Below, in pieces: positions 4,104-47,022 of a DNA stretch of 64,000 nt. The position numbers and the translations under genes are program-made. How positions within the stretch are numbered: the stretch's first letter is position 1; each line of letters begins with the position of its first letter. The DNA lies in assembly GCA_045537795.1 (NCBI GenBank), contig JAZSQE010000065.1, positions 101,418 through 165,417 on the forward strand. Reading direction: 5' to 3'. Source of the DNA: Kiritimatiellia bacterium (GTDB lineage Bacteria > Verrucomicrobiota > Kiritimatiellia > RFP12 > UBA1067). Under the pieces are notes generated by a model that saw only the letters and a program-made list of their open reading frames with translations, did not search any database and was not told the origin of the DNA.

Positions 4104-5429
4104 ATGGCGACTTTTCAATATATCGCGAAAGATTCAGCAGGCAACGAAAAACGCGGCACGGTGGAAGCCGGCGATCGCAGTTCGGCGATCGCCGCCGTCC
4201 GTGCGCAGGGGCTTCTGCCGACGGCGCTCGGCGAAGTGAAGGGCGCTCCACAATCCGCCCAGCGTCAGGCCGCAGCTCCGAAGCGAGGCAGACCTGCCCC
4301 GCCGCCGAAGAAAAAAGGCGGTGCGCTCAACAAAGAGATCAAGATCGACATCAAACTGCCCAAATGGTTGCAGGGCAAGGTCAAGACGAAGGATCTCACG
4401 CAGTTCACGCGCCAGCTGGCGACGCTCGTCAATGCGGGGCTCCCGCTCATGCGCGGTCTCGAGGTCTTGAAGCGACAGATGAAAAACCCGCAGCTGCACG
4501 ATGCTCTTTCGGGAATCTCCGAAAACATCGCGGCCGGCGGCACGTTCTCCGAGTCGCTCACGCAATACCCCAAGATTTTCGACAACCTCTACGTCAACAT
4601 GGTGAAAGCCGGCGAAGCGGGCGGTGTTCTCGAAGTCGTGCTCGGGCGTCTGGCGGAGTTCGCCGAAAAGTCGGAGAAAATCAAGAACAAGGTGAAGGGC
4701 GCGATGATTTATCCGATCGTCGTTCTCCTTGCGGCCGTGGGCATCACCGCGTTCCTGCTCGTCATGGTCATTCCCAAGTTCAAGCAGGTGTTCAACGACA
4801 TGCTCGGCGGCGCCGCGCTGCCGGCGATCACCGAGGCCGTTATCCAAGCTTCGGAATTCGTCCAGCACAACGGTCTGCAGGTCTTTCTGGGGATCGTCTC
4901 CATCGTCGTCATTTTCAAGATTGTCGGAAAGACCGAGAAGGGGGCCTACATGTTCGACGCGCTCGCGCTCAAGATGCCGGTCACGGGCACGCTCGCCCAG
5001 CGCTCGGCGGTCTCGCGCCTCACGCGCACGCTCGGCACGCTGCTTTCTTCGGGCGTACCTATTCTGCAGTCGCTCGTGATCGTGCGCGACACGACGGGCA
5101 ACCGCGTCGTCTCGAACGCCATCCAGCAGGTTCACGACTCCGTGAAAGAGGGCGAGTCCATGACGCAGCCGCTTTCGCAGTGCCCCGTCTTCCCGCCGAT
5201 GGTCGTTTCGATGGTCGAGGTCGGCGAAGAGACGGGCGCGCTCGCCGACATGCTCACGCGCATCGCCAACACGTATGACGATGAAGTCGATAACGCGGTC
5301 GCCGGCATGACGGCCGCGATCGAGCCCGCGCTCATCATCGTTCTCGCCGTCGTCGTAGGCACTATCGTCATCGCGATGTTCCTGCCCATGATCAAGATCA
5401 TCAGCTCTGTTTCGGGAGCGGGAGCGTAA
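4104..5429 (+). CDS. gspF: type II secretion / type IV pilus inner-membrane platform protein (GspF/PilC family)
   Basis: The start MATFQYIAKDSAGNEKRGTVEA...AIAAVRAQGLLP is a classic GspF N-terminus. It has two repeated cytoplasmic-domain-plus-TM modules (LATLVNAGLPL..., LGTLLSSGVPIL...). A Pro/Lys-rich insert (PKRGRPAPPPKKKGG) follows the first 50 aa. Confidence 0.85.
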   Translation: MATFQYIAKDSAGNEKRGTVEAGDRSSAIAAVRAQGLLPTALGEVKGAPQSAQRQAAAPKRGRPAPPPKKKGGALNKEIKIDIKLPKWLQGKVKTKDLTQFTRQLATLVNAGLPLMRGLEVLKRQMKNPQLHDALSGISENIAAGGTFSESLTQYPKIFDNLYVNMVKAGEAGGVLEVVLGRLAEFAEKSEKIKNKVKGAMIYPIVVLLAAVGITAFLLVMVIPKFKQVFNDMLGGAALPAITEAVIQASEFVQHNGLQVFLGIVSIVVIFKIVGKTEKGAYMFDALALKMPVTGTLAQRSAVSRLTRTLGTLLSSGVPILQSLVIVRDTTGNRVVSNAIQQVHDSVKEGESMTQPLSQCPVFPPMVVSMVEVGEETGALADMLTRIANTYDDEVDNAVAGMTAAIEPALIIVLAVVVGTIVIAMFLPMIKIISSVSGAGA

Positions 5430-5432
5430 AAC

Positions 5433-6575
5433 TTGAGAAAAGCATTCACACTCGTCGAACTTCTGATCGTCGTCCTGGTGTTCGTCACTTTGATGACGAT
5501 CGTGTTCAGACTCGGGTCGTCAGTGTCGGATTCCGAACGGCGCAGCCGCACGATCATGGCTCTGCAGAAGATAGAAAACTGTCTTTCGGGATATTATGCC
5601 GCATTCGGGAGCTATCCGCCCGTCAAACTGCACGGCAGCCGCAATTTCTATCTCAAGGTGAACGAGTACGGCATACAGCAGGTGAACGAAGATCCCGAAG
5701 AAGGCAAGCTCGTCTGGCGACGCGTCGATGCCGCCTGCCGAAGCCAGCCGGTCGCGATGAATTATCCGTATTCTTCGGGGCTGAAGGAGTACGTTAAGAC
5801 CGTTTCGGAAGGGTTGAAGTTCCTGCACAATGAATTTCCGGACAGTCGCGTGGGGAAAAATCCCGCTCTTGCCCTCGGCTTTGACGCGCTTGAGAACGTC
5901 AACCAGCTTTCGTCCAAAAGAAACGACGCGAGCTGGAGCCAAACGCAGCTTTTCCGCTTCGGGCTTATGAGCTTTCTCCTGCCGCGTTATCTCGTCATGA
6001 TGGAGCATCAGGACAGGCAGATATACGATCAATTCTCGCAATGGAGCAACAACAACGAACTGCCGTGCAGATTTGAAGACGGCATCCAGTACGAAACATG
6101 GTCGGATATGGCCAACGATCTCGCCGTGAAGGACGAACGGTGGAAGATCCAGCTTATTCCTTCGCAGGCCGTCACGGCCCGGTGGATGCCGAATCTTGAA
6201 GGTCTGCTGACGTGCGACTCGCCGAAAGTGGTTTTCTTCGGAATCAACGTGACGGGGACCGGAAGCGCGAATCTCGCGGTTACCGAGAATGCGCAACCGG
6301 TTCTTTATTCTTCCGCAGACAGTCAGCGCGGGGAAAACTCCGGCCTTTCGCAGCAGTATGCGCTTGACGGCATCACGTGCAAAGACGGCTGGCACAACGA
6401 GCTTTACTATTATTCGCGCCCGCCGTATCAAAGTTACAGGCTTTGGAGCGCGGGGCCGGACGGCAAGACCTTTCCGCCGTGGGCGACGCAGGATGAAATC
6501 GCCAAAATGAGTTCCGCCGATCAGAAGATGGTCTCCAACTGGACGGTGGACGATATAGTTCAAATGTCCAACTGA
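5433..6575 (+). CDS. large pseudopilin-like protein with prepilin-type N-terminal cleavage/methylation motif (380 aa)
   Basis: It has a TTG start. The leader MRKA|FTLVELLIVV has Glu at +5 and Ala at -1. The C-terminus carries a GspG-type loop (SAGPDGKTF...TVDDIVQM). It begins 3 nt after the gspF stop. Confidence 0.75.
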   Translation: MRKAFTLVELLIVVLVFVTLMTIVFRLGSSVSDSERRSRTIMALQKIENCLSGYYAAFGSYPPVKLHGSRNFYLKVNEYGIQQVNEDPEEGKLVWRRVDAACRSQPVAMNYPYSSGLKEYVKTVSEGLKFLHNEFPDSRVGKNPALALGFDALENVNQLSSKRNDASWSQTQLFRFGLMSFLLPRYLVMMEHQDRQIYDQFSQWSNNNELPCRFEDGIQYETWSDMANDLAVKDERWKIQLIPSQAVTARWMPNLEGLLTCDSPKVVFFGINVTGTGSANLAVTENAQPVLYSSADSQRGENSGLSQQYALDGITCKDGWHNELYYYSRPPYQSYRLWSAGPDGKTFPPWATQDEIAKMSSADQKMVSNWTVDDIVQMSN

Positions 6576-6584
6576 GGGATTCAA

Positions 6585-7208
6585 ATGAAAAGCGCAAGAG
6601 GTTTCACGCTCATAGAGATGCTCGTCGTCATCGGGATAATCGCCGTTCTCGCCGGCGCGGGGCTCGGCGCATTCAAGGGCGCTGTCGCGAGTGCGCAGAA
6701 GGCGCGGGCTACCGAGCTTGTTTCGAACGTCATGACGGCGCTCGTCTCCGTGATGCAGAAGGACGAAGCCTGGCCCAAAGCGATTATCGCGGAGGGGGCG
6801 GGCGGCGGCGAGATGACGCCTGAAGTCGGAGCTTCTCTCGCCAGACGCGGAGCGCTCAGTCTTACCTACAAAAAGACGGAAGACGAATCTACTGGCGAGA
6901 CGGTGTATCGTCTGACGGGTCTGGATCAGTGCGGAGTCGTCTCTCCATGGGCCATGGACGTTATCAGGCGCAAGGCGGTCAACGGGAACGTTTCCCTTTC
7001 GGAGAAGGTCCCCACCGGCGGCACGATACGCGATCACAGGCTTCGCTTCGCGATCGATGACGATCTCGACGGGATCGTCAAGGTCAATTACGAGAATTCG
7101 AAATCGGTCGAGATTCGGGCGTCCGCCGCGGTATGGTGCTGCGGAAGAGACGGCAAGTTCGGCACGAAGGACGATGTGAAAAGCTGGTCGAAAGGGCAGG
7201 AGCGGTGA
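6585..7208 (+). CDS. GspG-like pseudopilin (207 aa)
   Basis: The leader MKSARG|FTLIEMLVVIGIIAVLAG is canonical (G-1, F+1, E+5). The C-terminal GRDGKFGTKDDVKSW is a GspG-type loop. Confidence 0.8.
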   Translation: MKSARGFTLIEMLVVIGIIAVLAGAGLGAFKGAVASAQKARATELVSNVMTALVSVMQKDEAWPKAIIAEGAGGGEMTPEVGASLARRGALSLTYKKTEDESTGETVYRLTGLDQCGVVSPWAMDVIRRKAVNGNVSLSEKVPTGGTIRDHRLRFAIDDDLDGIVKVNYENSKSVEIRASAAVWCCGRDGKFGTKDDVKSWSKGQER

Positions 7209-7801
7209 AAAAAGGTTTTACGATAGTCGAGTTGATGGCGGTCTGCGCGATACTCGCCGTTCTCGTTTCGATAGTCGTCGTGGCGGCGAGCGGAGCGATA
7301 AAAAACTCAAGAGACAAGCGCGCTACGGCGATGGCGAGCGCTCTTCAGCAGGGGATAAACGCCTACTACGCGCAGGAGGGCAGGTGGCCGCAGGCGATGG
7401 AGTCTAAAATCGGGTCTATCGACGATGATTCGTACACGTTCACCCAGCACGAGACGGACGAGATATTCAGAGAGGTCGTCGGCAAGGGCTTCGGCAAAGG
7501 CAGCGGTTCGCGCTCCGCGCTCGTCGACGCGTCGGCGCTTTTCGTCGCCAACGCCTCCGAACTGAAAAATAACGGCAAGGGCTGCAATGACAATCATTCC
7601 GACCGTACAGAGTCTGATTATTGCGGCAATCAAAACTGCGCCAGAGGTGTCGATTTCATCGAAGCCGTGAAGCGCGGCGGAAAGCACAAAATCCCGTTCG
7701 CGCAGATGGCGTTCGGCTATCAGGGCAGAGTCAACGGCAGATTCCGCCGCTTTTGGATAAAATACAACCCGAAGACAGATTCGGTGAGCGTAAGCAAATG
7801 A
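7205..7801 (+). CDS. pseudopilin-like protein (198 aa)
   Basis: GTG 7205 overlaps the previous stop (GTGA). The leader is VKKG|FTIVELMAVCAILAVL. The upstream part of ORF 7133 overlaps the preceding gene and is rejected. Confidence 0.75.
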   Translation: MKKGFTIVELMAVCAILAVLVSIVVVAASGAIKNSRDKRATAMASALQQGINAYYAQEGRWPQAMESKIGSIDDDSYTFTQHETDEIFREVVGKGFGKGSGSRSALVDASALFVANASELKNNGKGCNDNHSDRTESDYCGNQNCARGVDFIEAVKRGGKHKIPFAQMAFGYQGRVNGRFRRFWIKYNPKTDSVSVSK

Positions 7802-7808
7802 ATTTCGC

Positions 7809-8618
7809 ATGATGAAAAAAGCGTTCACGTTGATAGAGCTTCTGATGGTCGTGGCAATCATGGCCTTTCTCGGCGTCGCTTCCGCAGGCGGCTATGCGGC
7901 GCTTACGCGCGGCATAAAGGAACGCGGCGCAGTGGCGGCCGCGTCGGCGTTTCTGCGCGCGGCCAAAGAACGCGCTCTTATAGACCGGGTGCCGACGGCG
8001 GTGTTCTGCTACAACAAACTCCTCAAAGACTCCTCCGGGTCGGATGATTCGCATCAGGTGGTGGTAGGCGAAATGGTCGCCGTGCGCCGGCAGGGGCGGA
8101 TATCGAGCATACAGGGCGATTTCCTCTTTGACGAGTTCGCCGATCTCAATCTTACGTACGATGTCGCCGAAGACGAGTCGGAGCTTCGCGACGGCTCGAG
8201 TCTGCGGCTTTACAAATTCGCCGGCGGCAATATGAGCGACATGCGCTATTCTGTCGTCGCTTCGACCGTATGGATGGAAACGGGGCGCACGTTGGATTTC
8301 TTTTCGCGCCCCAGCGAAATTCTGCCCATGTGCGCTTTTTACAACCAGGGCAAGAGCGAGCGTGAAGCGACATGGTCGGTAGGCAGCGCGTACGCGCTGG
8401 AGTTCGGCGAACTGCAGTTGCCGCACGGTTTCGTTTTCAGCGGGCAGATACCTTCGCGCGTCGGAGAGATTTCGGGCTTGAAGGTGCTTTGTTTCGACCC
8501 CGAGAACGAATCGGATAAAACGGTCGAAATGATATCGACCAGACCAGATTCCGGCGGCAGGGCCGTGAAGTTCCGCGACATCGGCAAGGCGACTTCGGAC
8601 GAAAAGGAGGGCGTATGA
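7809..8618 (+). CDS. GspH/FimT-like minor pseudopilin (269 aa)
   Basis: The leader is MMKKA|FTLIELLMVVAIMAFL. It is followed by AAASAFLRAAKERALIDRVPTAVF, resembling the GspH/FimT helix-to-strand transition. Confidence 0.65.
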   Translation: MMKKAFTLIELLMVVAIMAFLGVASAGGYAALTRGIKERGAVAAASAFLRAAKERALIDRVPTAVFCYNKLLKDSSGSDDSHQVVVGEMVAVRRQGRISSIQGDFLFDEFADLNLTYDVAEDESELRDGSSLRLYKFAGGNMSDMRYSVVASTVWMETGRTLDFFSRPSEILPMCAFYNQGKSEREATWSVGSAYALEFGELQLPHGFVFSGQIPSRVGEISGLKVLCFDPENESDKTVEMISTRPDSGGRAVKFRDIGKATSDEKEGV

Positions 8619-9196
8619 GAAAAGGTTTTACGCTCGTCGAAGTCAATCTCGCGATCTTCATCATGGCCGTCGGCGTCCTTGCGATGTGCGGTCTTAACGC
8701 TCTGGGGTACCGCGAAAACCGCCAAAGCGTCGAGGATGTCGCGTCCGTGGCGTTCGCCGACACGTATCTCGCGCCTCTCGTGCAGGGTCTGTCGGCGCTT
8801 GACATGAAATGGAGCGACTGGTGCGCCATCGGCAATCCGCCCTCGCGCGCGGAGATGCGCTCGCGCGGCGTCGCGGACGGTCTTCTGCCTCGGGAAGGTT
8901 GGATGGCGTATGTCGACAAAGTGAAACTCTCCGGCGAAGACGAATACGGCTGCCGTGTCAGGACCGGCGCTCGCGCTCGCGCCGATTCGGCGTTCGGAGA
9001 CGTGATTTCAAAGGTGCCCGCCGCCTACAGAGGTTCGCGCGCGGCGATACCGGGCGATTACGAATACGCGCTCGTCGTGACGCGGCGCGGCGCCGTCATA
9101 CAGCTCGCGTTCAGATGCGCGAGACGGCGTGATTCTCTCATGTCTCAGCCGACGGTCGTCGCCGAAGTGCACTTTCAGGGAGATCCTAACCAATGA
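8615..9196 (+). CDS. GspI-like minor pseudopilin (193 aa)
   Basis: There is an ATGA overlap with the upstream gene. The leader MRKG|FTLVEVNLAIFIMAVGVLAM follows the GspI-style EV..A pattern. Confidence 0.6.
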   Translation: MRKGFTLVEVNLAIFIMAVGVLAMCGLNALGYRENRQSVEDVASVAFADTYLAPLVQGLSALDMKWSDWCAIGNPPSRAEMRSRGVADGLLPREGWMAYVDKVKLSGEDEYGCRVRTGARARADSAFGDVISKVPAAYRGSRAAIPGDYEYALVVTRRGAVIQLAFRCARRRDSLMSQPTVVAEVHFQGDPNQ

Positions 9197-9702
9197 CACG
9201 CAAAGGGTTCACCCTCCTCGAAATGATGGTCGCGAGCCTTCTTCTCGGAATGCTCGTGACGACTCTTACCATGCTTTTCAATTCCTCTTCGGTCGCGTGG
9301 CGTACGGGCACCGCCGGAGTGAGCGAACTTAAAGACGTGCGCTCGTCGCTCGGTGTTTTTCACGATATCCAAGACGATCTTCTCCCGGGGCTGGGCGACA
9401 AAGGCTCGGGGAACGGCGCGGGACAAGGAGACAGCCGCTCTCTCAATTACCGTACGGTTTCGGTGTGGGATCCTTCGCAGGACAACAGACTGCGCACCGA
9501 TCGCGCGTACAAACAGATAAATTGGCAGGGCGCACCCAATATCAGCATAAACGACGCGGTGAAAGGAGCGTCGAAGTCGGTGGGCAGAGCCGGCTCGGGT
9601 ATCGGTTCGGGGCTCTTTACGGTAGGCGTGCGCAGCCGCGGCCCTGACGGGATACCCGATACGGAAGATGACATAACGACATGGCCAGATCAGATCGATT
9701 GA
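9193..9702 (+). CDS. GspJ-like minor pseudopilin (169 aa)
   Basis: There is an ATGA overlap with the upstream gene. The leader is MTRKG|FTLLEMMVASLLLGMLV. The C-terminus RGPDGIPDTEDDITTW is a GspG-type loop. Confidence 0.6.
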   Translation: MTRKGFTLLEMMVASLLLGMLVTTLTMLFNSSSVAWRTGTAGVSELKDVRSSLGVFHDIQDDLLPGLGDKGSGNGAGQGDSRSLNYRTVSVWDPSQDNRLRTDRAYKQINWQGAPNISINDAVKGASKSVGRAGSGIGSGLFTVGVRSRGPDGIPDTEDDITTWPDQID

Positions 9703-9703
9703 C

Positions 9704-10174
9704 ATGAAAAAAGCTTTTACATTGGTCGAGCTTCTTGTTGTGGTATCGATGATCGCGGTACTCAGCGCATCGATGATGTCCGCCGTCGGGCGGGCAAGGA
9801 TGCGCTCGCGCGTCGCGAAGGCCACGCAGGAAATAAAAGAACTCACAAACGCCATTCTCGCGTATGAGCAGTACGCCCCGAACCGTTCGCTCGACGGCGA
9901 AGTTACCGGATGGACAGACTGCACGGAAGGCGCTCTTTCGATGGTTCTCGGCGGCAAGAGCGGCGACAACGGCGAGAGGATACCCGTTCTGTTCAACGCA
10001 AATATCACGCGCGGTGAATTTCGCGATCCGTGGGGCAGGGCGTACCAGCTTAAAATAGAAAAAACCGATACTCTTCAGGGCGGCGGCACGGATGAAGATC
10101 GCGGCGTCAGTTTCACGACGGCGCCGGCGCTCCCGAATTACTTCAGACTTACGGACAAGGAGCGTGGACTATGA
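9704..10174 (+). CDS. gspG: GspG-family pseudopilin (156 aa), candidate major subunit
   Basis: The leader is MKKA|FTLVELLVVVSMIAVLSA. The RARMRSRVAKATQEIKEL helix and the RDPWGRAYQL motif (DPWGxxY) are typical of GspG. Confidence 0.7.
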   Translation: MKKAFTLVELLVVVSMIAVLSASMMSAVGRARMRSRVAKATQEIKELTNAILAYEQYAPNRSLDGEVTGWTDCTEGALSMVLGGKSGDNGERIPVLFNANITRGEFRDPWGRAYQLKIEKTDTLQGGGTDEDRGVSFTTAPALPNYFRLTDKERGL

Positions 10175-13100
10175 TTGTTGAAACGAAAAAAGGCAGCGCG
10201 CTTCTGATCGTTCTGGGAATGGTCGCTTTCATGATCGTAAGCGCCGTCAGCTTTTCGATATTCATGCGCCAGAGCCGCGTTCCGTCGAGCCATCTAAGGC
10301 GTGAGGTTTCTTCAAGATATCTTCTGAAAGCCGCGCTCGCCAACGCGATAGCGCGTATCGACGGGCAGTTCGCCTCCCAGCGCAAAATCGGCAATTCCGA
10401 TCTGGGGGACTCCACCGGTTCGGGCTATACCGAGGGCGTGTTTGACAGCACCTATCCCGGGTTAAACAACGAAAGCGATATAAGACGCAACGGAGATTAT
10501 TGGTCGAGCGGCAGGGTGTTCATGCCGTTTGGAGCGCTTAAGTACGGCAGAGAAACCGGCAATGAGCAGGATCCGTCGGATTATGACGACGATGTCGTCA
10601 CCGAAAACCAAACGGTTTCGACTCTGACTCTCGAAGCTCTCGCGTATCTGCCGCCGGCGATAATAAACGAGGTCAGAATCGATTCGCGCCGCACGAGGAC
10701 GGCGCGCTGGAGCAACCTTTCGTATGAGCTCGGGCGCTATGCGTTCACGGCCGTCAACGTCTCGGACTGCTTCGACATCAACAGATTGTACGCTTCGATG
10801 CGGCGCACTTCCGCGCCCGGCGAGCGCATCAACATGAGCGGGCTTTTCGAGTCGCCTGCCGCGGCGGAGAAGTTCGATTCGATTCTCGAGAGGTCGGGGG
10901 ATGTGCCTTTCGTTTCGCTGGCGGACTTCAACATCGTCGCGCAAGGGACGGAATTTTCCCCGTTCAGCCGTTATATCGGGTCGCAGCAGTCTTATATTTA
11001 CAGGATGAGCGACGCGAATTCGCTCTCCAACGCCCTGTTCGTCACCGATACGTGGTTCCCCGAGAACGATACCGCTTCGAGAGATGCGTCGGAGGGGAAT
11101 CAGAACGCGGGGAATCAGCAGAATCAGCAGAATGCCGTGCAGAAATTCGATCTTGCCGCCGGCGGGGACAATCAGCCGTTCAAGGATTTCTCCGAAAAGA
11201 AAACGCTTCTCGGGTTTGCCAGCGAATCTCCGCCGCCGATAAGAACCAAACTGCAGGAGTTCATCGGGTTCGTCGGCACGGCGTGTCTTTACGACTATCT
11301 CGACGGCGACAGCGTGCCGCTTTCGCTTTGCATTCCTTCGGCGGAAGCCGTGCCGATGGTTTCTTCGCTCTGCATAGCAAACCAGTTCAATCTTAAGATA
11401 GAGACCGAAGAGCGCAACGGGGTGGAAATCGTGACGCCGGCGACTGAAGATTCCCCCGAGGTGAAGTTTGTGCGCAACGCGAAAAAGTATAAACTGACGG
11501 GCATTGCCGATTCGGGCTCCATAATGGTCGCGGGCACGGTTCTTTATCCTTTTCTCAGGATGAAGGACAAAGGATATCCCGAGAATTTCAAACTCGAGTC
11601 TCTCGTGAAAATATGGTGGGCGCCGAAGGACGTGAAATCAAGGCTCGCTTCGGACGCCGTTCTTTATCCGTCGACGAAGGAGGCGTGGGCGTCGTCCGTG
11701 AAAGACGGCGTAGTTACGGTCTATTCGAGTAACGATGTGAAAATCGAGGGGTTTTCCGTCAAGGATATGCCGCAATCTTCCCAGGAGGCGGTGTTCAGAA
11801 TCATGGGCAACGTGACGCTGCCGGCTCTTGACATGCCGCTTATGTGGTATGTCGAAGAATGGGAGCAGAATGGCGATGATGAACAGCGTCTGAACGAGAA
11901 GAAGTATTATTCGCTGAATGATTGCCATAACGAGAACTCTTTCAGGCCGTATGCGGCGCAGGGGCAGGCCGACGGATGGTGGAAGCCCGAAGATCCGAAG
12001 ATGACGCTTTCGTTCCCGACGTTCGAGGGGGGCAAGTGGTCGTCGCGCGATCCGGCGCCGCACAACGCCACGGCGCTGCCGGAAACGGAATACGTCATGC
12101 ATGTCGCGCTTTGGGTCCGCGTCATCGACGGCGACGGCAATACGGTCGATATGGCCCCCGCGCGGCCGTCCGACGATTCTCTCTGGATCGCCCAGGGCGG
12201 TGGCGATGAGATGAATATTTTCGAAAAAATCGCGGGCGGAGGATCTCCGATTCTTGAGTTCCGCGGCACCGTGCCCGTAAAGTACACGAAGGAAACCTGT
12301 GACGGTTTCGGCGGCGGGGTCGCGGAGCCGATGGAATGGAATTCTCTTTTCTGCTGCGACCCCAAGTTCAACTGGGCTCCGGAAAACTGGTTCAAGGCGA
12401 AGGAGAATTTCGAGGGGTCGCTGGAAGGCTCCTGGGTCTCCAAAGCGGAAAGCGTCGTGGGCACCGGTAATCGCGACAAAGACGTGTTTATGGCGGTTTC
12501 AGACCAGGAATATCTCCAATCCATCGGCGAGCTCGGGTTTATCCCCGATCTCGGGTGGCGCATCGGCAATAAACTGGTCGATTACGAAGATCGCTTCACG
12601 GGGGCGTCCATGTCTGCGCGAAGCGGAGCGGGCGACTGTGTATGCAACGAATATTTCTGGAGGACGTATTCGCCCATTGAAGACCCGGTATACGATTTCG
12701 ACGGCGAAATGGAGGTCATATCGGGGCAGAACGATTTCAGAGTCAATCCGTTCACCGGCGATCTTCGCGTGATGATGGCGGCGATCGCCAATACTCCGTA
12801 CGATTATTACGTCGCTTCGACGAATCAGGATTCTGAGATCAATCGTTTCGCGAGCATGGAGCTTAAGGATTCGCTCAAACACTCTTTCTGCAAAGATTGT
12901 CCGAGCGCCTATTGGGACGATGATCTCGTGAGGGATATCGCGCAGGAAATCAGCAGACGTTTCCGCGAAAAGGGCAGAGAGAAGCCGGGCGCCGACTGGA
13001 AAGAGATATTCGACGAAATGCCATGGTTCGACGGCAAGAAGGGCGCGGAGCAGCTTACCTTTCTCGAAGTGGAACTTGACAAGCCTCTGTACGGCGTAGA

Positions 13101-13401
13101 CAGGAAGTTTCTTTACTCGTACTGGCGCGAATGTTTTCAGAACAGGCAGCAGCTCTTTCTCGTTTTCATAAGAGCCGAGCCTCTTTCTGTCGGAGGGGCG
13201 AGCGGCGACGCCGTCGGCAACGCCCAGCTCGGCGCGAGAGGAGTGGCTCTCGTGTGGCGCGATCCGGCCGTTCCGTCCGGCGGCGGCAACCGTCCCAAGA
13301 GAACGGAGTTGCTGTCGCCTCAGAAGTGGCAGACTCTGAGCGCCGAGAATTCGGTAAAGCCGCACCGCACGAGAGTCCTTTTCTACCATCAGTTCGATTG
13401 A
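10171..13401 (+). CDS. giant GspK-like minor pseudopilin / putative tip protein (1076 aa)
   Basis: There is an ATGA overlap with gspG. The N-terminus KKGSALLIVLGMVAFMIVSAVSF matches the GspK signature (RGxALlxVL, with no F+1 or E+5). The position after the G/H/I/J-like genes fits GspK. About 1000 further residues belong to no family I recognise, including a Q/N-rich tract (NQNAGNQQNQQN). Confidence 0.6.
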   Translation: MIVETKKGSALLIVLGMVAFMIVSAVSFSIFMRQSRVPSSHLRREVSSRYLLKAALANAIARIDGQFASQRKIGNSDLGDSTGSGYTEGVFDSTYPGLNNESDIRRNGDYWSSGRVFMPFGALKYGRETGNEQDPSDYDDDVVTENQTVSTLTLEALAYLPPAIINEVRIDSRRTRTARWSNLSYELGRYAFTAVNVSDCFDINRLYASMRRTSAPGERINMSGLFESPAAAEKFDSILERSGDVPFVSLADFNIVAQGTEFSPFSRYIGSQQSYIYRMSDANSLSNALFVTDTWFPENDTASRDASEGNQNAGNQQNQQNAVQKFDLAAGGDNQPFKDFSEKKTLLGFASESPPPIRTKLQEFIGFVGTACLYDYLDGDSVPLSLCIPSAEAVPMVSSLCIANQFNLKIETEERNGVEIVTPATEDSPEVKFVRNAKKYKLTGIADSGSIMVAGTVLYPFLRMKDKGYPENFKLESLVKIWWAPKDVKSRLASDAVLYPSTKEAWASSVKDGVVTVYSSNDVKIEGFSVKDMPQSSQEAVFRIMGNVTLPALDMPLMWYVEEWEQNGDDEQRLNEKKYYSLNDCHNENSFRPYAAQGQADGWWKPEDPKMTLSFPTFEGGKWSSRDPAPHNATALPETEYVMHVALWVRVIDGDGNTVDMAPARPSDDSLWIAQGGGDEMNIFEKIAGGGSPILEFRGTVPVKYTKETCDGFGGGVAEPMEWNSLFCCDPKFNWAPENWFKAKENFEGSLEGSWVSKAESVVGTGNRDKDVFMAVSDQEYLQSIGELGFIPDLGWRIGNKLVDYEDRFTGASMSARSGAGDCVCNEYFWRTYSPIEDPVYDFDGEMEVISGQNDFRVNPFTGDLRVMMAAIANTPYDYYVASTNQDSEINRFASMELKDSLKHSFCKDCPSAYWDDDLVRDIAQEISRRFREKGREKPGADWKEIFDEMPWFDGKKGAEQLTFLEVELDKPLYGVDRKFLYSYWRECFQNRQQLFLVFIRAEPLSVGGASGDAVGNAQLGARGVALVWRDPAVPSGGGNRPKRTELLSPQKWQTLSAENSVKPHRTRVLFYHQFD

Positions 13402-13413
13402 TCCGTTTTCCGC

Positions 13414-15459
13414 ATGAAATACGATCTTGTTGTCATTACCGCCGCCAACAAGGCGCAGGCAAGAGGTTACAGGGCGCAGCTCAAGGGGAGAAAAGGGTAT
13501 CTTGTTCTTCCCGATCCGGGTGAAAGGCGCGTCGGGTCTCTCGGCGCCACCGTCAACGCCCTCAGGCGCATGAAATCGCTTCACGCGAAATCCCGCGTAC
13601 TCGTCTGTCATTCCGGCGGCGACGCCAGACGCACGGTCGCATACGCGGCTCTCGGAAAGGCGTTCGTGCCGATGCCCGATTCGAGGCCGCTTCTCGATCA
13701 TGTCGTCGAGGCGATGGAAAAACTGCCAGCGGCGCCCGGAGTGACGGTCTGCTGCGGGGATGTCGTCCCGCGACTTGATTACGGCTCGGTCAGGTTCGCC
13801 CGCCGCGGCGTTACCGGAGTTGCATATCCCGACGGCCCGTGGCAGGCGCAGCGCCACGGCGTTTATGTGGCCGAAAGCCGCGATTCTTCCGATCCCGTCA
13901 CGGTGCAGGGCTTTCTTCAGAAACCGCAGGTGAAACGCGGCCGGCACCTTATCGACACCGGGATAATGCACATCGATTGGCTAACCGCCGAAAAAATGCG
14001 ATCGCTCCCCGTGGCAGGCGACATTTATGAGGAATTTCCCAAGATGCTTCTCGGCGGGTTTGCGCCGTTCTCGGTTTCGATCGTCCCCGAATGTGAATTT
14101 TTCCATGTCGGCTCGAGCCGCGAACTCCTGAAACTTCTCGGCCGTTCGGGCAGATTGATCGATTCTTGCGCGGCCGCGATCGGAAAGCTCGGAGGGGAGA
14201 ACATCGTCGTGAACGTCCCCGCTTCGTACGGCCGCGTCGATCTCGCCAAAGGCGAGTGTCTAACGTGTCTGCCGCTGGGCAAAAGCGATTGGTATCCCCT
14301 CAGGTATCATATCGACGACAACTTCAAGACGGACGGGCTCTGGGAAAAGCACGATCTCGCAGAAAAGATGAAATCGGTCGATCACTCGAGGCTCGCGGGG
14401 CTTCGCCGCCGCGAAGTCAAGGTTACGGCGCCCGTGAGAATCGATTTTTCCGGCGGCTGGAGCGATACGCCTCCGATTTGCAACGCCGAAGGCGGCGCCG
14501 TTCTTGCGGCGGCCGTCACGCTCGACGGCAAGAGACCCATCGAAGTGACGGTGCGCGAGCGTGCCGACAAGTTCGTGAAAGTCGTTTCGAAAGATCTCGG
14601 CAAGCGGCGTCTTCTGAAAAGCGCCGCCGAAATCGCCGATCACCACGATCCCCATGACTGGTGCGCGCTCGTAAAATCGGCGTTGACGGTTACCGGGTTC
14701 AAGTTCGGTTCGCGAGGGCTCGACATAATCATTTCAGCGGATTTGCCGAAGGGTTCCGGCATGGGGACCTCTTCCATTCTCGGCGCGGCCACGATAGCGG
14801 CTCTTCTCCGCCGCGCGGATGTCGACGAGATAGGCTCTCTCACGCTCGCGCTCGAGCGCGAGATGCGCACCGGCGGCGGCTGGGAAGATCAGTTCGCGGG
14901 GCTCACGCCCGGTATGAAGCTCATGACTTCAAGGCCCGGTGCAGAACAGCGCATCGTTTCACGAGGACTTTCCCTCGACGCGGGAAGTTTCGCTGAAAAG
15001 CTGAAATCGCGCTCGCTTCTCTATTTCACCGGACAGAAGCGCATGGCCCGCAACGTCCTCAGGCGCGTCATCTCGTTTTACGCCGAGAACCCCCACGATT
15101 TCGCGCATATCCTCGTGGATGCCCTCAAGAAGGGCGCGCATGACGCCGCCGCCGCCGTCGGACGCGGCGACATCGAGGAGTTTGCGCGCTGCATCAACGC
15201 GTATTGGCGCGACAAGAAACTTCTCGACGCGGGTTCGACGAACGAGCGTGTCGACGAAATCATATCTCTCGTTAAGCCTTTCGCGTCGGCCGTGACGCTC
15301 GCGGGCGCGGGCGGCGGCGGGTTTATGTACATTTTGGCGAAAAGTCCCGCGGCGGCGAAGAGGATACGCTCCATGCTGGAGAAAAATCCGCCGTCGAAAC
15401 ATTCGCGCTTCTACGCTTTCGATATAGACGACAAGGGGCTTGTCTTCGAAGGGTGCTGA
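13414..15459 (+). CDS. fkp: Fkp-like bifunctional L-fucokinase / fucose-1-phosphate guanylyltransferase (short form, 681 aa)
   Basis: The N-terminus DLVVITAANKAQARGYRAQL matches the fucokinase/pyrophosphorylase N-domain signature. The C-terminal half has the GHMP kinase motif LPKGSGMGTSSILGAA. It starts 12 nt after the GspK-like gene. Confidence 0.7.
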   Translation: MKYDLVVITAANKAQARGYRAQLKGRKGYLVLPDPGERRVGSLGATVNALRRMKSLHAKSRVLVCHSGGDARRTVAYAALGKAFVPMPDSRPLLDHVVEAMEKLPAAPGVTVCCGDVVPRLDYGSVRFARRGVTGVAYPDGPWQAQRHGVYVAESRDSSDPVTVQGFLQKPQVKRGRHLIDTGIMHIDWLTAEKMRSLPVAGDIYEEFPKMLLGGFAPFSVSIVPECEFFHVGSSRELLKLLGRSGRLIDSCAAAIGKLGGENIVVNVPASYGRVDLAKGECLTCLPLGKSDWYPLRYHIDDNFKTDGLWEKHDLAEKMKSVDHSRLAGLRRREVKVTAPVRIDFSGGWSDTPPICNAEGGAVLAAAVTLDGKRPIEVTVRERADKFVKVVSKDLGKRRLLKSAAEIADHHDPHDWCALVKSALTVTGFKFGSRGLDIIISADLPKGSGMGTSSILGAATIAALLRRADVDEIGSLTLALEREMRTGGGWEDQFAGLTPGMKLMTSRPGAEQRIVSRGLSLDAGSFAEKLKSRSLLYFTGQKRMARNVLRRVISFYAENPHDFAHILVDALKKGAHDAAAAVGRGDIEEFARCINAYWRDKKLLDAGSTNERVDEIISLVKPFASAVTLAGAGGGGFMYILAKSPAAAKRIRSMLEKNPPSKHSRFYAFDIDDKGLVFEGC

Positions 15460-17465: not shown

Positions 17466-19481
17466 ATGTCAGACACCGAAGCTTTGGCAAATCAATTGAA
17501 TGAATGCGTCGAAAAACGCGATTTCGCGGGAGCGTTCGCGCTTATAAGGGAAAATCAGGAGGGGCTCGCGAAAAAGTTGCAGGCCTCCGGCGTCAAGGAG
17601 GCTCTCAAGAGCGCGACTTCAGACAGGCTTTTGATTTCATTCGTCGACGGCGCGCTTTTCGGCGAAGTCCCTCTCGACAAGGCGCTCGTCGCGCTGGAAA
17701 AGCTCCTCTCCTTCAAACTCGGTTCGCTCGTTCTCAGCAAGGCGTGGGGATTGGGGACGGTCAAGAGGCTCGATTACTTCTACAAGCGCATTACCGTCGA
17801 TTTCAAGACGAAGCGCGGTCATCAGTTCACCTACGCCGCCGCCGTCGACATGCTCGAGTCTCCGAGCGAAGATCACATACTCGTTCTGCGCGAGGCCGAC
17901 CCCGCGCGTTTCGAAAAGATGCTCAAGGAGCAGCCCGGTGAATTCGTGAAGCGGGTGCTCAAGAGCTACGGCGATATGCCGATAGTGAAGCTCGAGGATG
18001 TCTGCGCCCAGAACGGTTTCGTCAAAAGCGTCAACTGGAAGAAATTCTGGGAAGCGGCGCGCGCCGAACTGCGCAAGGACGGCCTTGTGGAGATACCCGC
18101 CAAACGCACCGATCCGATCCGTCTCAAGGCGTCGGTCGAAGATTACGGCGACGGGTGGCTTACGGCGTTTTCCCACGAGACCGACCCGAAGCTCATTCTC
18201 TCTTCCGTGCGCGAATACGTTTCGCAGGGCAGGTTTAAGAGCGTCGGCGACGACGTCAAGGCCAAGTTCGAAGAGCGCCTTTCGTTCGCGGTCACGGCGG
18301 CCCGCAAAGTGGACGACGCCCTTTACGCGCGCCTCGCCTGCGAAGTGACGCTTCTCGGGCTTTCGAAGCCTTCCGCCGCGGAGATGCGCGAATATCTCTG
18401 GGAGCGCAAGCGCTTTATCGCCGCCGCCGCCCAGCTGCCTTCGCGCGATATCGGCGCGTTTCTGCGTTTCATGGCCGTAGACGACGAGGCGAAAGCGCGA
18501 CTCTACAGGGCGCTCGGCGAGTTCTGCTTCGCGGCCGTGTCGGAGATCGCGGCTATTTTCGGCGACGAGGCCGCGTGCCGCGAGGCGTTCGCGGCGTTGA
18601 TGAGGGAGCCCAAGGCTCCGCCGACGCTCGTGACTCTCATTGTCGGCAAGTATGAGGTTTTCGGCAAGTGGCAGGAACTGCCGTCGCTCATCACGATTCT
18701 CACGCACGCCATCGCGCTCGGAGAAGGGCGTCAGAGCGGCGAGACGCTCAAGATGCAGAATATCGTGCGCCGTCTTTTCGCCAACACCGACTGGCTCAAG
18801 AAAATATTCGGCTGGCTCGACGACAACGACAGAGCGCTTCTGTTCGAGCGCTTTCAGGCGTCGATCGCGTGGGAGGCTTCGACCCATCACGCGATCGTCG
18901 TGAGAATGACGAAGATCGCGCCCGAACTCGAGAAGCATTTCGTCAAGGTCGAGAAGAAGAAGGAGTACGCGCGCGTCACCTCGCCGCGCAGTTTCGCCCT
19001 CAGAAAGCGCGAATATCTCAAACTCATCAACGAAGACATGCCGGCGAACGTCAAGCGCATCGAATTCGCGAAGAGCTACGGAGACCTTTCCGAAAACGCC
19101 GAATATCAATACGCCAAGGACGAACAGCGCGCGCTCATGCAGAAGCAGACGCTCATGCAGGCGGATCTCGAGGCCGTCAAGCCCGGAGATTTCGCCGACG
19201 CGGCGTTCGACGAGGTGATGCCCGGCGTCAGTGTCGTCGTCGACACGAAGGACGGCGAAAAAACCTGGACGATTCTCGGAGAATGGGATAACGATCTCGA
19301 AAAAGGGATCATCTCTTCGAAGACGCGCGTCGCTCTGAATCTCATGGGCAAGAAGCCCGGCGACTCATTCGAGTTGCCCGATGCCGAAGGTGGCGTCTCG
19401 TTCGCGACGGTCAAGGAGATTAAAGCGCTTTCCGCGGACATCGTAGAGTGGATGAAGGTTCCCGAAGGGCTCGCGATTTGA
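17466..19481 (+). CDS. greA: GreA/GreB-family transcript cleavage factor with ~520 aa N-terminal extension
   Basis: The last ~145 aa form a complete Gre module: coiled-coil tip GDLSENAEYQYAKDEQ and C-terminal domain ISSKTRVALNLMGKKPGDSFEL. The start at MSDTEAL has the RBS AGGGAGACAAA. The long N-terminal region belongs to no family I recognise. Confidence 0.75.
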   Translation: MSDTEALANQLNECVEKRDFAGAFALIRENQEGLAKKLQASGVKEALKSATSDRLLISFVDGALFGEVPLDKALVALEKLLSFKLGSLVLSKAWGLGTVKRLDYFYKRITVDFKTKRGHQFTYAAAVDMLESPSEDHILVLREADPARFEKMLKEQPGEFVKRVLKSYGDMPIVKLEDVCAQNGFVKSVNWKKFWEAARAELRKDGLVEIPAKRTDPIRLKASVEDYGDGWLTAFSHETDPKLILSSVREYVSQGRFKSVGDDVKAKFEERLSFAVTAARKVDDALYARLACEVTLLGLSKPSAAEMREYLWERKRFIAAAAQLPSRDIGAFLRFMAVDDEAKARLYRALGEFCFAAVSEIAAIFGDEAACREAFAALMREPKAPPTLVTLIVGKYEVFGKWQELPSLITILTHAIALGEGRQSGETLKMQNIVRRLFANTDWLKKIFGWLDDNDRALLFERFQASIAWEASTHHAIVVRMTKIAPELEKHFVKVEKKKEYARVTSPRSFALRKREYLKLINEDMPANVKRIEFAKSYGDLSENAEYQYAKDEQRALMQKQTLMQADLEAVKPGDFADAAFDEVMPGVSVVVDTKDGEKTWTILGEWDNDLEKGIISSKTRVALNLMGKKPGDSFELPDAEGGVSFATVKEIKALSADIVEWMKVPEGLAI

Positions 19482-19532
19482 TAAAATAAGGCAGTTTCGC
19501 AAGATAGCAACCGACACAGGAGGGATGTCAAG

Positions 19533-43104: not shown

Positions 43105-43143
43105 AAGTCCGCAATCCGTTGCCGGAATACGTCAGGAGGAGAA

Positions 43144-44406: not shown

Positions 44407-44509
44407 GAGGTGCGGCGCCGCGAAATTCCTCGGGCGGGAACGCTTCGTGCTGAGGCGGGCGATAGCCGCCAGAAAGAATGCGGAAGTTAAATTCAAGCCA
44501 AAATCGCTA

Positions 44510-45456: not shown

Positions 45457-45477
45457 AAAGCGCGATCTTTGAAATTT

Positions 45478-45858: not shown

Positions 45859-45880
45859 AGAAATAAGGAAACGTACATCC

Positions 45881-47011: not shown

Positions 47012-47022
47012 AAGGAGAAACC

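Follow-up and report, generated by a model that had tools for sequence, protein, structure and literature searches.

The window considered here, i.e. the whole 64,000-nt stretch of Kiritimatiellia DNA that was analysed, carries on its forward strand a gene for an inner-membrane platform protein, seven prepilin-type genes (pp1-pp7) and, last in the row, an open reading frame for a protein of 1076 aa and about 120 kDa:

4104..5429, + strand: GspF/PilC-type inner-membrane platform protein, 441 aa; Pfam T2SSF, 1.6e-68; the operon's first gene in the window
5433..6575, + strand: pp1, prepilin-type protein, unusually large at 380 aa; GspG-like N-terminus and C-terminal motif
6585..7208, + strand: pp2, prepilin-type pseudopilin, 207 aa; N_methyl, 2.8e-8
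7208..7801, + strand: pp3, prepilin-type pseudopilin, ~197 aa; N_methyl, 1.3e-5
7809..8618, + strand: pp4, GspH-like minor pseudopilin, 269 aa; hhalign to GspH
8615..9196, + strand: pp5, tentatively PilV/GspI-like minor pseudopilin, 193 aa; NCBIfam type_IV_pilV, E=1.3e-6, below cut-off
9193..9702, + strand: pp6, GspJ-like minor pseudopilin, 169 aa; best hhalign match E. coli GspJ, E=2.2e-7, 52 columns
9704..10174, + strand: pp7, GspG-type pseudopilin, 156 aa; hhalign to GspG, weak T2SSG match
10171..13401, + strand: probable GspK/PilK-class gene, whole gene including the stop codon, 1076 aa

The platform protein scores 404 bits against the NCBIfam GspF model and 399 bits against PilC, both below the equivalog cut-offs, and its gene is the immediate upstream neighbour of the cassette in about half of the related loci but missing from the rest. 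The first cassette gene in all related loci is pp1, whose product has Pfam N_methyl and weak T2SSG matches and aligns to E. coli GspG over the N-terminal 60 columns (hhalign, E=1.8e-9); the syntenic pp2 (E=5e-12, N-terminal region; present in all loci) and pp3 (E=1.6e-11; start placed at the codon preceding KKGFTIVEL) also align to GspG. The match of pp7 to E. coli GspG is nearly full-length (104 columns, E=1.3e-12), making it a candidate for the major subunit. For pp4, E. coli GspH gives the best match and also the longest (E=3.8e-7, 70 columns), accompanied by weak NCBIfam XpsH and ComGD matches, and pp5 is tentatively called PilV/GspI-like from its type_IV_pilV match and its place between the H-like and J-like genes. 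All seven pilins have Glu+5, in leaders of the form G-F-T-L-x-E, and none of them matches GspK (hhalign, E≥0.007); GspG, GspH or GspJ is matched instead. Genes for a secretin, GspE or a prepilin peptidase are absent from the 64,000-nt window, and in some relatives a secretin and a GspE-type ATPase adjoin the cassette. Genes of glycan metabolism (DUF4838, fucokinase, a fucose-isomerase-like protein, FGGY kinase) are frequent around the locus.

The ATG of the 1076-aa gene overlaps the stop codon of pp7 (ATGA), with AAGGAG 8 nt 5' of the start, and the gene is, judging by this overlap, translationally coupled to pp7. The reading frame is not a product of chance, because it has 430 homologues at E≤1e-3 in a 90%-identity protein collection, the best 120 of which are full-length with 36-70% identity, and 1105 cluster representatives in a 50%-identity library (966-1186 aa among the 150 clusters listed). 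Named members are each a 'hypothetical protein' from Kiritimatiellae MAGs; the family is unannotated and conserved among Kiritimatiellae of gut and rumen. Of the 72 related loci, about 60 extend far enough upstream to show the gene order, and in every one of these the gene comes last after seven prepilin-type genes, which form a fixed cassette including GspH-, PilV/GspI-, GspJ- and GspG-like members. The neighbours up- and downstream of the cassette vary. The original prediction had described a protein of about three times the size of GspK, encoded directly after G/H/I/J-like genes and lacking Phe+1 and Glu+5, and all of this was borne out: the protein is ~3.3 times as large as an ordinary GspK (36 diverse sequences, 286-393 aa), the seven genes before it have the leaders just described, and the N-terminus, MIVETKKG/SALLIVLGMVAFMIVSAVSF (the slash marking the predicted end of the leader), has Ser rather than Phe at +1 and Ile rather than Glu at +5 and contains the sole hydrophobic segment of the protein.

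What kind of protein, then, occupies this terminal position? When the family profile was compared with a 36-sequence GspK alignment (hhalign), residues 4-210 aligned to GspK 3-113 with E=4.3e-7 and a probability of 92.7, a match spanning the leader (G/SALLIVL, without Glu+5), the helix and the CF(D/N)(I/L)N motif. Either end of this region is recognised separately, residues 1-35 with E=2.6e-6 and, within residues 150-215, residues 182-210 with E=4.3e-5 (to GspK 85-112, CFNLNAL). Offered E. coli GspG, H, I, J and K, the family matches GspK only (E=1e-4 vs at least 0.007), and 39 of 45 members give a weak match to the NF037980 GspK model. On the negative side, neither the protein nor any of 45 homologues matches a Pfam family, T2SSK (PF03934) and PF21687 included; the protein reaches none of the curated Pfam or NCBIfam thresholds, NF037980 giving 15 bits against a cut-off of 130. 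Similarity to GspK in profile comparison is confined to about the first 210 residues and absent from residues 211-1076, the alignment of residues 355-387 to GspK 121-162 (the DWIDxD region) being non-significant (E=0.007). Likewise, a Foldseek search of the full model against the PDB had no GspK or other pseudopilin among the 50 matches listed and no match of any kind at E≤0.001, the C. perfringens major pilin 6ixy_B appearing at E=0.17 with a probability of 0.02; a discontinuous pilin module is, however, a hard target for a local structural aligner of this kind.

The overall architecture of the protein can be laid out as follows:

10171..10362, + strand: residues 1-64, short leader, hydrophobic alpha1N without Glu+5, and alpha1C helix (sequence, hhalign, AF2)
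10363..10815, + strand: residues 65-215, predicted N-terminal pilin-sheet strands, the 97-186 insert and the SDCFDINRL motif (hhalign, couplings)
10816..11355, + strand: residues 216-395, N-terminal half of a conserved alpha/beta 'collar' (AF2, conservation)
11356..12375, + strand: residues 396-735, beta-rich head domain predicted to fold autonomously; more variable than any other part (AF2, identity)
12376..13140, + strand: residues 736-990, C-terminal half of the same conserved alpha/beta collar (conservation, couplings)
13141..13398, + strand: residues 991-1076, three predicted C-terminal beta-strands (AF2 strands, couplings)

The full-length AF2 model (pLDDT 82.5, pTM 0.81) has a long N-terminal helix, predicted in two stretches (residues 10-35 and 40-64), and three C-terminal strands (995-1003, 1022-1030 and 1067-1075). 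G8, S9, A10, L11, L12, I13 and V14 are nearly invariant in the family, and the leader would be cleaved after G8. Residues 65-215, with a mean identity of 54%, include the conserved insert, which contains TLTLEALAYLPPAIINEVR, and the SDCFDINRL motif at residues 198-206 (nt 10762-10788). Helices are predicted across residues 222-377 of the first collar half, which contains an invariant DYLDxD...P motif (residues 375-383, from nt 11293); L373, D375, Y376, D378 and P383 do not vary. The Gln/Asn-rich tract noticed originally near residue 310 does exist (residues ~308-320), but it is not a family feature, because the loop that holds it (residues 300-325, nt 11068-11145; 23% identity, pLDDT < 50) is poorly conserved and varies in length, measuring 5-21 residues in most homologues (5th-95th percentile, 248 sequences). 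The second collar half bears the motifs DPRYNxAPExWF, SDQEYLQSIGELxFxP, GDFRVNPF and TPxDYYVASTN, and has no similarity in Pfam, among PDB sequences or to GspK. With a mean identity of 62%, the C-terminal 86 residues (991-1076) rank among the most conserved regions of the family, and the last strand, PHRTRVLFYHQFD (nt 13360-13398), hardly varies at all. Mean pairwise identity thus follows a gradient, from 54-71% in the core through 39-41% in the collar to 23-30% in the head (residues 396-735).

Do the two ends of so long a chain come together in a pilin fold? Mean-field DCA couplings from 248 sequences, judged against a column-permuted maximum, link the N-terminal helix and early strands with the C-terminal strands at I60-T1067, L52-A1022, L52-G1024 and Y95-N991, all above this null, as are V168-V195 and T151-A191 within residues 65-215. 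Helix/C-terminus pairs make up 10 of the top 60 couplings where 6.5 were expected, a modest enrichment. Together, AF2 secondary structure and this handful of couplings indicate that the C-terminal strands may pack back onto the N-terminal helix and complete the pilin sheet, with the reservation that the permutation null ignores phylogeny and that AF2 draws on the same coevolution signal. Further couplings between residues 736-990 and 200-395 (A393-V776, S390-V772, F201-A870 and S214-Y781), taken without comparison with the null, suggest that the two collar halves pack on each other.

Taken together, we consider it probable that the 1076-aa protein is a very large apical minor pilin of the GspK/PilK class, belonging to a T2SS-type or type IV filament machine of a gut Kiritimatiellae bacterium and carrying a mid-sheet insertion of ~790 residues. 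The GspK-class identity originally proposed is upheld by the specific profile match (E=4.3e-7), the absence of Glu+5, the terminal place in the cassette and the helix/C-terminal couplings. Neither of the observations named beforehand as refuting it was made: the N-terminus looks GspK-like rather than like an ordinary signal anchor, and pseudopilin genes accompany the homologue in all of the ~60 loci with enough flank. The C-terminal segments quoted in the original prediction are indeed predicted strands, and the couplings fit its suggestion that they close the pilin fold. Its remark that the remaining ~1000 residues defy assignment agrees with the lack of Pfam matches.

With respect to the head, the proposal of an adhesin, a carbohydrate-binding module or an enzyme found no significant support. 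Modelled alone, residues 386-745 give a confident AF2 structure (pLDDT 92.3, pTM 0.91) that has no Foldseek match in the PDB at E≤0.001; the best, to CBM9 (1i82), is not significant (E=9.4e-3, probability 0.44, TM 0.22), and structures of the CBM9 superfamily recur among the weak matches (1i82, 7nwo, 7nwn, 2ivf_C and 7b04_O). Most likely, the head would bind something outside the pilin core, be it a ligand, a glycan or cargo.

How might such a protein work? Its single hydrophobic helix would insert it into the inner membrane, where prepilin peptidase would remove the 8-residue leader after Gly8, as the GspK-like leader implies. Helix 36-64 would then lie on a sheet made of strands from residues 65-197 and 995-1075, completed in cis by the nearly invariant extreme C-terminal strand, as in GspK; AF2 and coevolution lend this step support. 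Because it lacks Glu+5, the protein could serve only as the first, topmost subunit, and, by analogy with GspK and PilK, it would be the nucleus for pp5/pp6 (the GspI/J-like pair) and pp4 (GspH-like), beneath which GspG-type subunits (pp7, possibly pp1-3) would be polymerised on the GspF platform. The insertion appears to begin right after CF(D/N)(I/L)N, where the GspK alpha-domain begins, and to be itself nested, the collar (216-395 plus 736-990) bearing the distal hypervariable beta-rich domain (396-735); models, conservation pattern and coevolution in part support the resulting placement of a ~90 kDa head on the filament tip. There the head may bind, for example, cargo to be secreted, the gate of the secretin or a glycan outside the cell.

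It is also possible, though we think it rather unlikely, that, instead of a short T2SS pseudopilus within the periplasm, the cassette makes a long type IV pilus exposed on the cell surface, in which case the protein would be a PilX and PilY1 equivalent in cis, acting as a tip adhesin for mucin, plant polysaccharide or host surfaces, or in DNA uptake. Its 120 kDa resemble PilY1, PilC and MshQ (about 1000-1200 aa; PMC13533445), seven pilin genes exceed the canonical T2SS number, the platform protein is nearly as good a PilC as a GspF, and hypervariability of the distal domain (23% identity) is expected of an exposed ligand-binding tip; moreover, Kiritimatiella lives on polysaccharides and has no TonB-dependent uptake systems (PMC5148204). 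The recurrence of CBM9-superfamily structures points the same way, but the match itself lacks significance (E=0.009), and neither a PilY1/PilC domain (Pfam) nor a propeller (Foldseek) was found. The best candidate for the major subunit, pp7, is a near full-length GspG homologue, the gene order H-I-J-(G)-K is T2SS-like, and neither the window nor its flanks showed PilT, PilMNOP or other genes specific to T4aP.

Alternatively, the protein might be no pilin at all but a bitopic inner-membrane protein whose uncleaved signal anchor resembles a GspK leader by chance, i.e. a periplasmic assembly or accessory component (an analogue of GspL, GspC or PilO), or an enzyme or binding protein co-expressed with pseudopilins. 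The failure of every curated GspK model and of the Foldseek search (50 matches listed) to find a pseudopilin, and the confinement of homology to ~210 residues that are in large part hydrophobic helix, would suit such a role, as would a missing assembly factor, since the surroundings of the cassette yielded no GspL/M/C genes. We nevertheless regard it as improbable: the N-terminal match is specific to GspK although GspG/H/I/J also have this hydrophobic helix, another GspK motif, which is not hydrophobic, is matched separately and in co-linear position, coevolution links the C-terminal strands to the N-terminal helix in the manner of a pilin fold, and the cassette would be left without any K-class cap, when its terminal K position is occupied in ~60 loci. 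That the head is a catalytic domain, e.g. a polysaccharide-degrading enzyme shown or delivered by the pseudopilus, is barely credible despite the invariant D730, E738, W740, D771, E787, W830, N859, R866 and D878 in the collar and the glycan-rich neighbourhood, as no enzyme family was matched in Pfam, NCBIfam, PDB sequences or Foldseek, and the glycan genes are not linked to the cassette because the neighbours on both sides are not conserved with it.

How does this probable giant apical pilin of the GspK/PilK class compare with known systems? Verru_Chthon cassette protein A (TIGR02600), the large member of the pilin-like cassettes of four genes in Verrucomicrobia, is likewise big and encoded alongside prepilin-type proteins in the PVC group, and the neighbouring pilins weakly match cassette proteins B, C and D (NCBIfam); however, only 1 of 45 family members matches TIGR02600, below threshold (E=0.059), and the 1076-aa protein does not.

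With GspK/XcpX, the T2SS cap (PDB 3CI0, 5VTM; PF21687 and PF03934), the protein shares a short leader ending in Gly and followed by (V/S)ALLxVL without Glu+5, the CF(N/D)(L/I)N motif that follows the third strand, an extra domain set into the sheet at that point, probably with C-terminal strands returning to finish the sheet (GspK topology: PMC6561018; PMC13533445), and the last place behind H-, I- and J-like genes. It differs in length (1076 aa vs about 290-390 aa), in an insertion of ~790 residues rather than a small helical domain of ~180, in the make-up of that insertion (a nested collar and beta-rich domain without detectable homology to the GspK alpha-domain), in the additional ~90-residue insert at 97-186, in falling below the Pfam and NCBIfam thresholds, and in the GspG-like gene lying between the J-like gene and its own.

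PilY1, PilC and MshQ, the non-pilin tip adhesins of T4aP and MSHA pili, are of similar mass (about 1000-1200 aa), with a presumed tip location, genes directly behind those of minor pilins and a conserved extreme C-terminal beta-strand (PMC13533445), but they carry a Sec signal peptide, lack a pilin module and give the strand in trans to a separate PilK/PilX, whereas here pilin module and head form one polypeptide, without the PilY1 beta-propeller domain. Streptococcus sanguinis PilB (vWA module) and PilC (lectin module) also fuse a pilin module to a binding module (PMC8179133; PMC9934059), yet these modules have known folds and stand C-terminal to a complete pilin module, while the present one is set within the pilin fold and has no significant match among known folds.

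K-class pilins in general lack Glu+5 and are apical, their C-terminal strand licensing assembly of the tip complex, and some have large insertions, such as Thermus ComZ (beta-solenoid, DNA receptor) and Caulobacter CpaL/TadG (~600 aa, adhesin domain) (PMC13533445; PMC6561018). The 1076-aa protein is about twice as large as these two, has only ~36 residues between its last two strands (1022-1030 and 1067-1075) and carries its large insertion where GspK has its alpha-domain; in fold the insertions are unrelated, with no solenoid and no ComZ among the Foldseek matches listed. What all three have in common is a GspK-like pilin module joined to a bulky module that fits only at the filament tip, with the C-terminal strand given in cis (PMC6561018; PMC13533445).

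The gene in question (10171..13401, plus strand) encodes a protein of 1076 aa (~120 kDa, pI 4.8) whose only hydrophobic segment spans residues 8-32. Its start codon ATG shares bases with the stop of the gene before it (CT-ATGA), and AAGGAG lies 8 nt upstream. A homologous-protein search returned 430 homologues at E<=1e-3, so the ORF is not a product of chance; the best 120 of these are 1004-1137 aa long and 36-70% identical at 98-100% query cover, and among the homologues listed the names, where given, read 'hypothetical protein [Kiritimatiellae bacterium]' and no precomputed Pfam domain is attached. When 1.84 billion cluster representatives were searched exhaustively with a profile, 1105 clusters scored at E<=1e-3, of which 425 reached E<=1e-30; the 150 top-scoring ones all measure 966-1186 aa. 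Since the ordinary GspK proteins collected for comparison are 286-393 aa long, the original estimate of about three times the normal size was right, and the best-scoring homologues share the large size. Its further claim, that some 1000 residues belong to no recognizable family, also stood: neither Pfam nor NCBIfam assigned a domain to residues 70-1076, be it in the protein or in a panel of 45 homologues, and PDB sequences searched with a profile yielded nothing above noise (E>=0.39).

The relationship to GspK is most apparent at the N-terminus. The leader ends in Gly (KKG) and is followed by hydrophobic alpha1N (SALLIVLGMV), with G8 to V14 nearly invariant in 50 homologues; position +5 is occupied by Ile, whereas Glu+5 is present in all seven neighbouring pilins, which bears out the proposed GspK leader hallmark. 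Curated models do not make the assignment: neither the protein nor any of the 45 homologues matches Pfam PF21687 or PF03934 at the gathering score, and the NCBIfam GspK model NF037980, which requires 130 bits, gives the protein 15 bits (E=0.014), with weak matches in 39 of the 45 homologues (best E=1.7e-4). By contrast, when the family was compared by hhalign with a GspK reference alignment of 36 diverse sequences, all with PF21687 and PF03934, residues 4-210 aligned with GspK 3-113 (probability 92.7, E=4.3e-7), a GspK-specific match that speaks against an ordinary N-terminal anchor unrelated to GspK. With E. coli GspG, H, I, J and K tested singly, GspK was the sole match (E=1e-4 versus at least 0.007). 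The leader and helix (residues 1-35) matched GspK by themselves at E=2.6e-6, and the non-hydrophobic part, comprising strand 189-196 and SDCFDINRL opposite GspK CFNLNAL, did so at E=4.3e-5; the GspK signal is made up of two independent, co-linear parts. Judged by profile-profile comparison over its N-terminal fifth, and not by curated models, the protein is GspK-like.

Further along the chain, hhalign of residues 211-1076, 380-740, 730-1076 and 940-1076 against the GspK profile gave nothing significant, and no homologue of the ~180-aa GspK alpha-helical domain with canonical Ca2+ sites was found in residues 211-1076. That SDQEYLQSIGEL or PFVSLADFN might correspond to the helix-hairpin-helix of GspK, or DYLDxD to its Ca site, therefore goes no further than a resemblance; the acidic motif DYLDxD...P, in which D375, Y376, D378 and P383 are invariant, resembles the DWIDxD Ca2+-site region of GspK and aligns to it at E=0.007 only. 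The cysteines C200 (in the CFDINRL motif) and C988 are nearly invariant in the family, and C372 was noted with both; together with the acidic motif they may mark disulfide or metal sites.

AlphaFold2 (AF2), run on the full-length protein with a 50-sequence alignment, returned a confident single-body model (pLDDT 82.5, pTM 0.81) with these predicted elements:

Residues 10-35 and 40-64: N-terminal long helix with the usual weak hinge
Residues 66-69, 85-88 and 189-196: short strands
Residues 222-377: helices
Residues 396-730: beta-rich block
Residues 740-990: alpha/beta block
Residues 995-1003, 1022-1030 and 1067-1075: three final strands

Strands 189-196 and 995-1003 flank the large insertion, which follows the CFxxN motif immediately. 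Mean-field DCA was applied to 248 sequences of the family (Neff 164), with gappy columns and the gap state excluded, and the couplings were judged against six column-permuted runs (maxima 2.0-2.3), a null that ignores phylogeny and that only about the 12 top couplings clear. I60-T1067 (7.6), Y95-N991 (4.0), L52-A1022 (2.65) and L52-G1024 (2.5) all exceed the permuted maximum, so that alpha1C and the early strands covary with all three C-terminal strands. Such covariation is as expected of, and supports, a predicted arrangement in which the C-terminal strands join the pilin sheet packed on the helix; the earlier idea that the C-terminus supplies the closing strands of a pilin fold would fit both the AF2 strands and these four couplings, although model and DCA draw on the same coevolution signal and hence provide overlapping evidence. 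A Foldseek search of PDB with the full model gave nothing at E<=0.001 and no GspK among the 50 matches listed. Other couplings, standing outside the null comparison (A393-V776, S390-V772, F201-A870 and S214-Y781), link residues 200-395 to 736-990, which suggests that these two stretches form one 'collar' domain within which residues 396-735 are nested. Modelled alone, residues 386-745 reached pLDDT 92.3 and pTM 0.91, and on that strength are predicted to be an autonomous domain, the head.

Conservation falls steeply from the pilin-like parts to this head, as mean pairwise identities show:

Residues 1-64: leader and helix, 64-71%
Residues 65-215: N-terminal sheet, 54%
Residues 991-1076: C-terminal strands, 62%
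Residues 216-299, 326-395 and 736-990: collar, 39-41%
Residues 396-735: head, 23-30%
Residues 300-325: Q/N loop, 23%, length-variable

A conserved core with a fast-evolving distal domain is the pattern that would be expected of an outward-facing module exposed to ligand or environment. The Q/N tract was rejected as a functional feature, the loop at 300-325 being so poorly conserved and variable in length. The suggestion that the head is an adhesin, a carbohydrate-binding module or an enzyme gained no significant support: the isolated head found nothing in PDB at E<=0.001 by Foldseek, its best match being the CBM9 structure 1i82_A (E=9.4e-3, probability 0.44, TM 0.13-0.22). With the full model, 1i82 was again the best PDB match (E=0.015), and BFVD gave nothing at E<=0.001. 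Other CBM9/DOMON-like structures (7nwo, 7nwn, 2ivf_C and 7b04_O) recur in Foldseek at E=0.06-0.6, and there is no Pfam CBM match in the protein or the 45 homologues; the recurrence of this superfamily among weak structural matches may be a lead, and is not a finding.

The gene stands in the following surroundings, all on the same strand:

4104-5429, plus strand: GspF/PilC platform gene (Pfam T2SSF 1.6e-68)
5433-10174, plus strand: seven prepilin-type genes (pp1-pp7, in order), each with a G-F-T-L-x-E leader
13414-15459, plus strand: fucokinase/GDP-fucose pyrophosphorylase gene, directly 3' of the large gene and unrelated to the cassette

A scan of one genome per species recovered 72 loci, all in gut, rumen or faecal Kiritimatiellae-type MAGs. 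In every locus with enough upstream flank, ~60 by tblastn, seven pilin genes in unchanged order are followed by the large gene, and the position claimed for it after G/H/I/J-like genes proved to be terminal throughout. GspF directly precedes the cassette in about half of the loci (tblastn with the window proteins), and loci without it have unrelated housekeeping genes upstream; what is conserved as a unit is therefore the seven pilins plus the large protein. By family profiles, pp7 matches E. coli GspG almost over its full length (E=1.3e-12, 104 columns), the best match of pp4 is GspH (E=3.8e-7) and that of pp6 is GspJ (E=2.2e-7), while pp5 resembles PilV/GspI (a weak NCBIfam PilV match); none of the pp1-pp7 profiles matches GspK (E>=0.007). 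The GspG-like pp7 is an extra gene intervening between the H/I/J-like genes and the large gene. The first cassette gene, pp1 (5433-6575), encodes 380 aa, unusually large for a GspG-like pseudopilin, and is 35-59% identical across all related loci (L001-L072); a weak T2SSG match is confined to residues 303-346 (DGWHNELYYYS...LWSAGPDGK), and the middle ~250 residues match no family.

No secretin, GspE or prepilin peptidase gene was found within the 64-kb window, and a linkage of the cassette to GspE or secretin there was accordingly rejected. In some relatives such genes lie near the cassette: locus L052 has a GspE-type ATPase (18685-20382; T2SSE 3e-132 plus N-terminal MshEN) ~5.5 kb downstream of the large gene, and L063 has a secretin (52-1389; Pfam Secretin 1e-35) upstream of GspF with a rho gene in between, so that the genes of the machine are scattered. 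The downstream fucokinase is kept as a neighbour in only one of the 72 loci (L056), and a functional link to the cassette is therefore unlikely. Cassette contigs also sit in bins labelled Barnesiella, Faecalibacterium, Gemmiger, Methanomethylophilaceae archaeon, Alistipes, Lachnospiraceae, Clostridiales and Muribaculaceae ('cleanbin' assemblies; L004, L007, L009, L011, L024, L025, L046, L051, L059 and L069). In operon order and identity they do not differ from the Kiritimatiellae MAGs, and mis-binning or mislabelled records, not horizontal transfer, are the most likely explanation.

As to the rest of the window, several fucose- or glycan-related genes share it with the cassette: the gene at 13414-15459 is bifunctional fucokinase/fucose-1-P guanylyltransferase-like, genes for a fucose-isomerase C-terminal domain protein and an FGGY sugar kinase lie at 35788-37152 and 38040-39548, and a DUF4838 protein with signal peptide is encoded at 1005-3344. 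A V/A-type ATPase catalytic subunit A gene (29166-30938; ATP-synt_ab 8.8e-67 plus V/A-type C-terminal domain) is consistent with the reported V-type ATPase of Kiritimatiella (PMC5148204). Candidate ORFs at 41171-42208 (345 aa), 43056-44453 (465 aa), 45305-47125 (minus strand, 606 aa) and 3377-3925 (182 aa) have no Pfam match at E<=0.001.

What role might so large a protein play? In all type IV filaments, the apical subunit that licenses assembly is of the GspK/PilK class. K-class pilins lack Glu+5, are therefore apical, and form the tip with I and J subunits, and the extreme C-terminal strand, which GspK itself supplies in cis and PilY1 in trans, licenses assembly of the tip complex (PMC13533445; PMC6211770). 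Taken with the GspK-like features described here, this knowledge points to the large protein as the putative cap and initiator of a filament built by the pp1-pp7 cassette, atop which a head of ~90 kDa would sit. The last strand, PHRTRVLFYHQFD, is almost invariant in the family and, together with the strong I60 coupling, would fit the 'C-beta' role. The GspG-type pp7 and the H-I-J order favour a short secretion piston over an extended pilus as the probable form of the filament. The head may bind cargo, the secretin or an external glycan. Kiritimatiella reportedly has a T2SS, secretes many enzymes that degrade polysaccharides, and lacks TonB-dependent receptors (PMC5148204), which would make a cargo or glycan role ecologically sensible. 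It is conceivable, if on balance doubtful, that in gut and rumen Kiritimatiellae a T2SS-type pseudopilus has been turned into a tipped organelle whose 120 kDa K-class cap carries an orphan-fold head, the distal, hypervariable beta-domain of which serves as a specific receptor for glycan, mucin or fibre, or as a cargo selector. Were this true, that domain as receptor would be a 'fishing rod' for polysaccharide in bacteria without TonB/SusCD-type capture, or as selector would decide which glycoside hydrolases pass through the secretin; either way it would add a new class of function to type IV filament tips, and would be the first large functional module at the GspK alpha-domain site as opposed to the ComZ/CpaL C-terminal site.

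The large protein is best read as a very large GspK-class cap with a nested insertion, widespread in an under-studied gut phylum and until now annotated as hypothetical only. A site whose alpha-domain has a role termed unresolved in GspK (PMC13533445) has here grown more than fourfold, into a nested head that is modelled with confidence and for which Foldseek found no structural relative. The protein is a fixed trait of a whole clade of polysaccharide degraders from gut and rumen, abundant but for the most part uncultured, in which it is a candidate for what sets substrate or surface specificity; it offers a natural experiment on the maximum cap size for a secretin-dependent filament and a test case for the function of tip insertions. 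The annotation 'K-class minor pilin' can now replace 'hypothetical protein' for a family of >1000 clusters (50% identity). No principle is overturned, modular and insert-bearing tip pilins being already known.

Among known systems, the NCBIfam model of Verru_Chthon cassette protein A (TIGR02600) does not match the large protein, and one of the 45 homologues matches it at E=0.059; a literature search found no paper on Kiritimatiellae pseudopilins or on the Verru_Chthon cassette. The tip adhesins PilY1/PilC have a C-terminal beta-propeller (Pfam Neisseria_PilC), a Sec signal peptide and no pilin module, whereas the large protein has a pilin-type N-terminus and neither a corresponding Pfam match nor a propeller by Foldseek. 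In ComZ and CpaL the insertion lies before the last strand (PMC13533445); unlike them, the large protein has strands 1022-1030 and 1067-1075 only ~36 residues apart, and its large insertion falls between strand 189-196 and strand 995-1003. By the tests run, it is outside the PilY1 and ComZ-type families, and its membership of CBM9 gained no significant support. In concept it comes nearest to ComZ and CpaL, K-class pilins that bear inserts, to PilY1 and MshQ, tip adhesins that are not pilins, and to modular pilins. The GspK alpha-domain, for its part, sits 'between the third and fourth strands' (PMC6561018), the same site as that of the insertion in the AF2 model. The large protein differs from GspK in its size, the content of its insertion and its failure to reach curated thresholds; it has the leader class, the motif and the gene position in common with GspK, as well as, by prediction, the site of the insertion and the return of the C-terminus, and GspK is its closest family.
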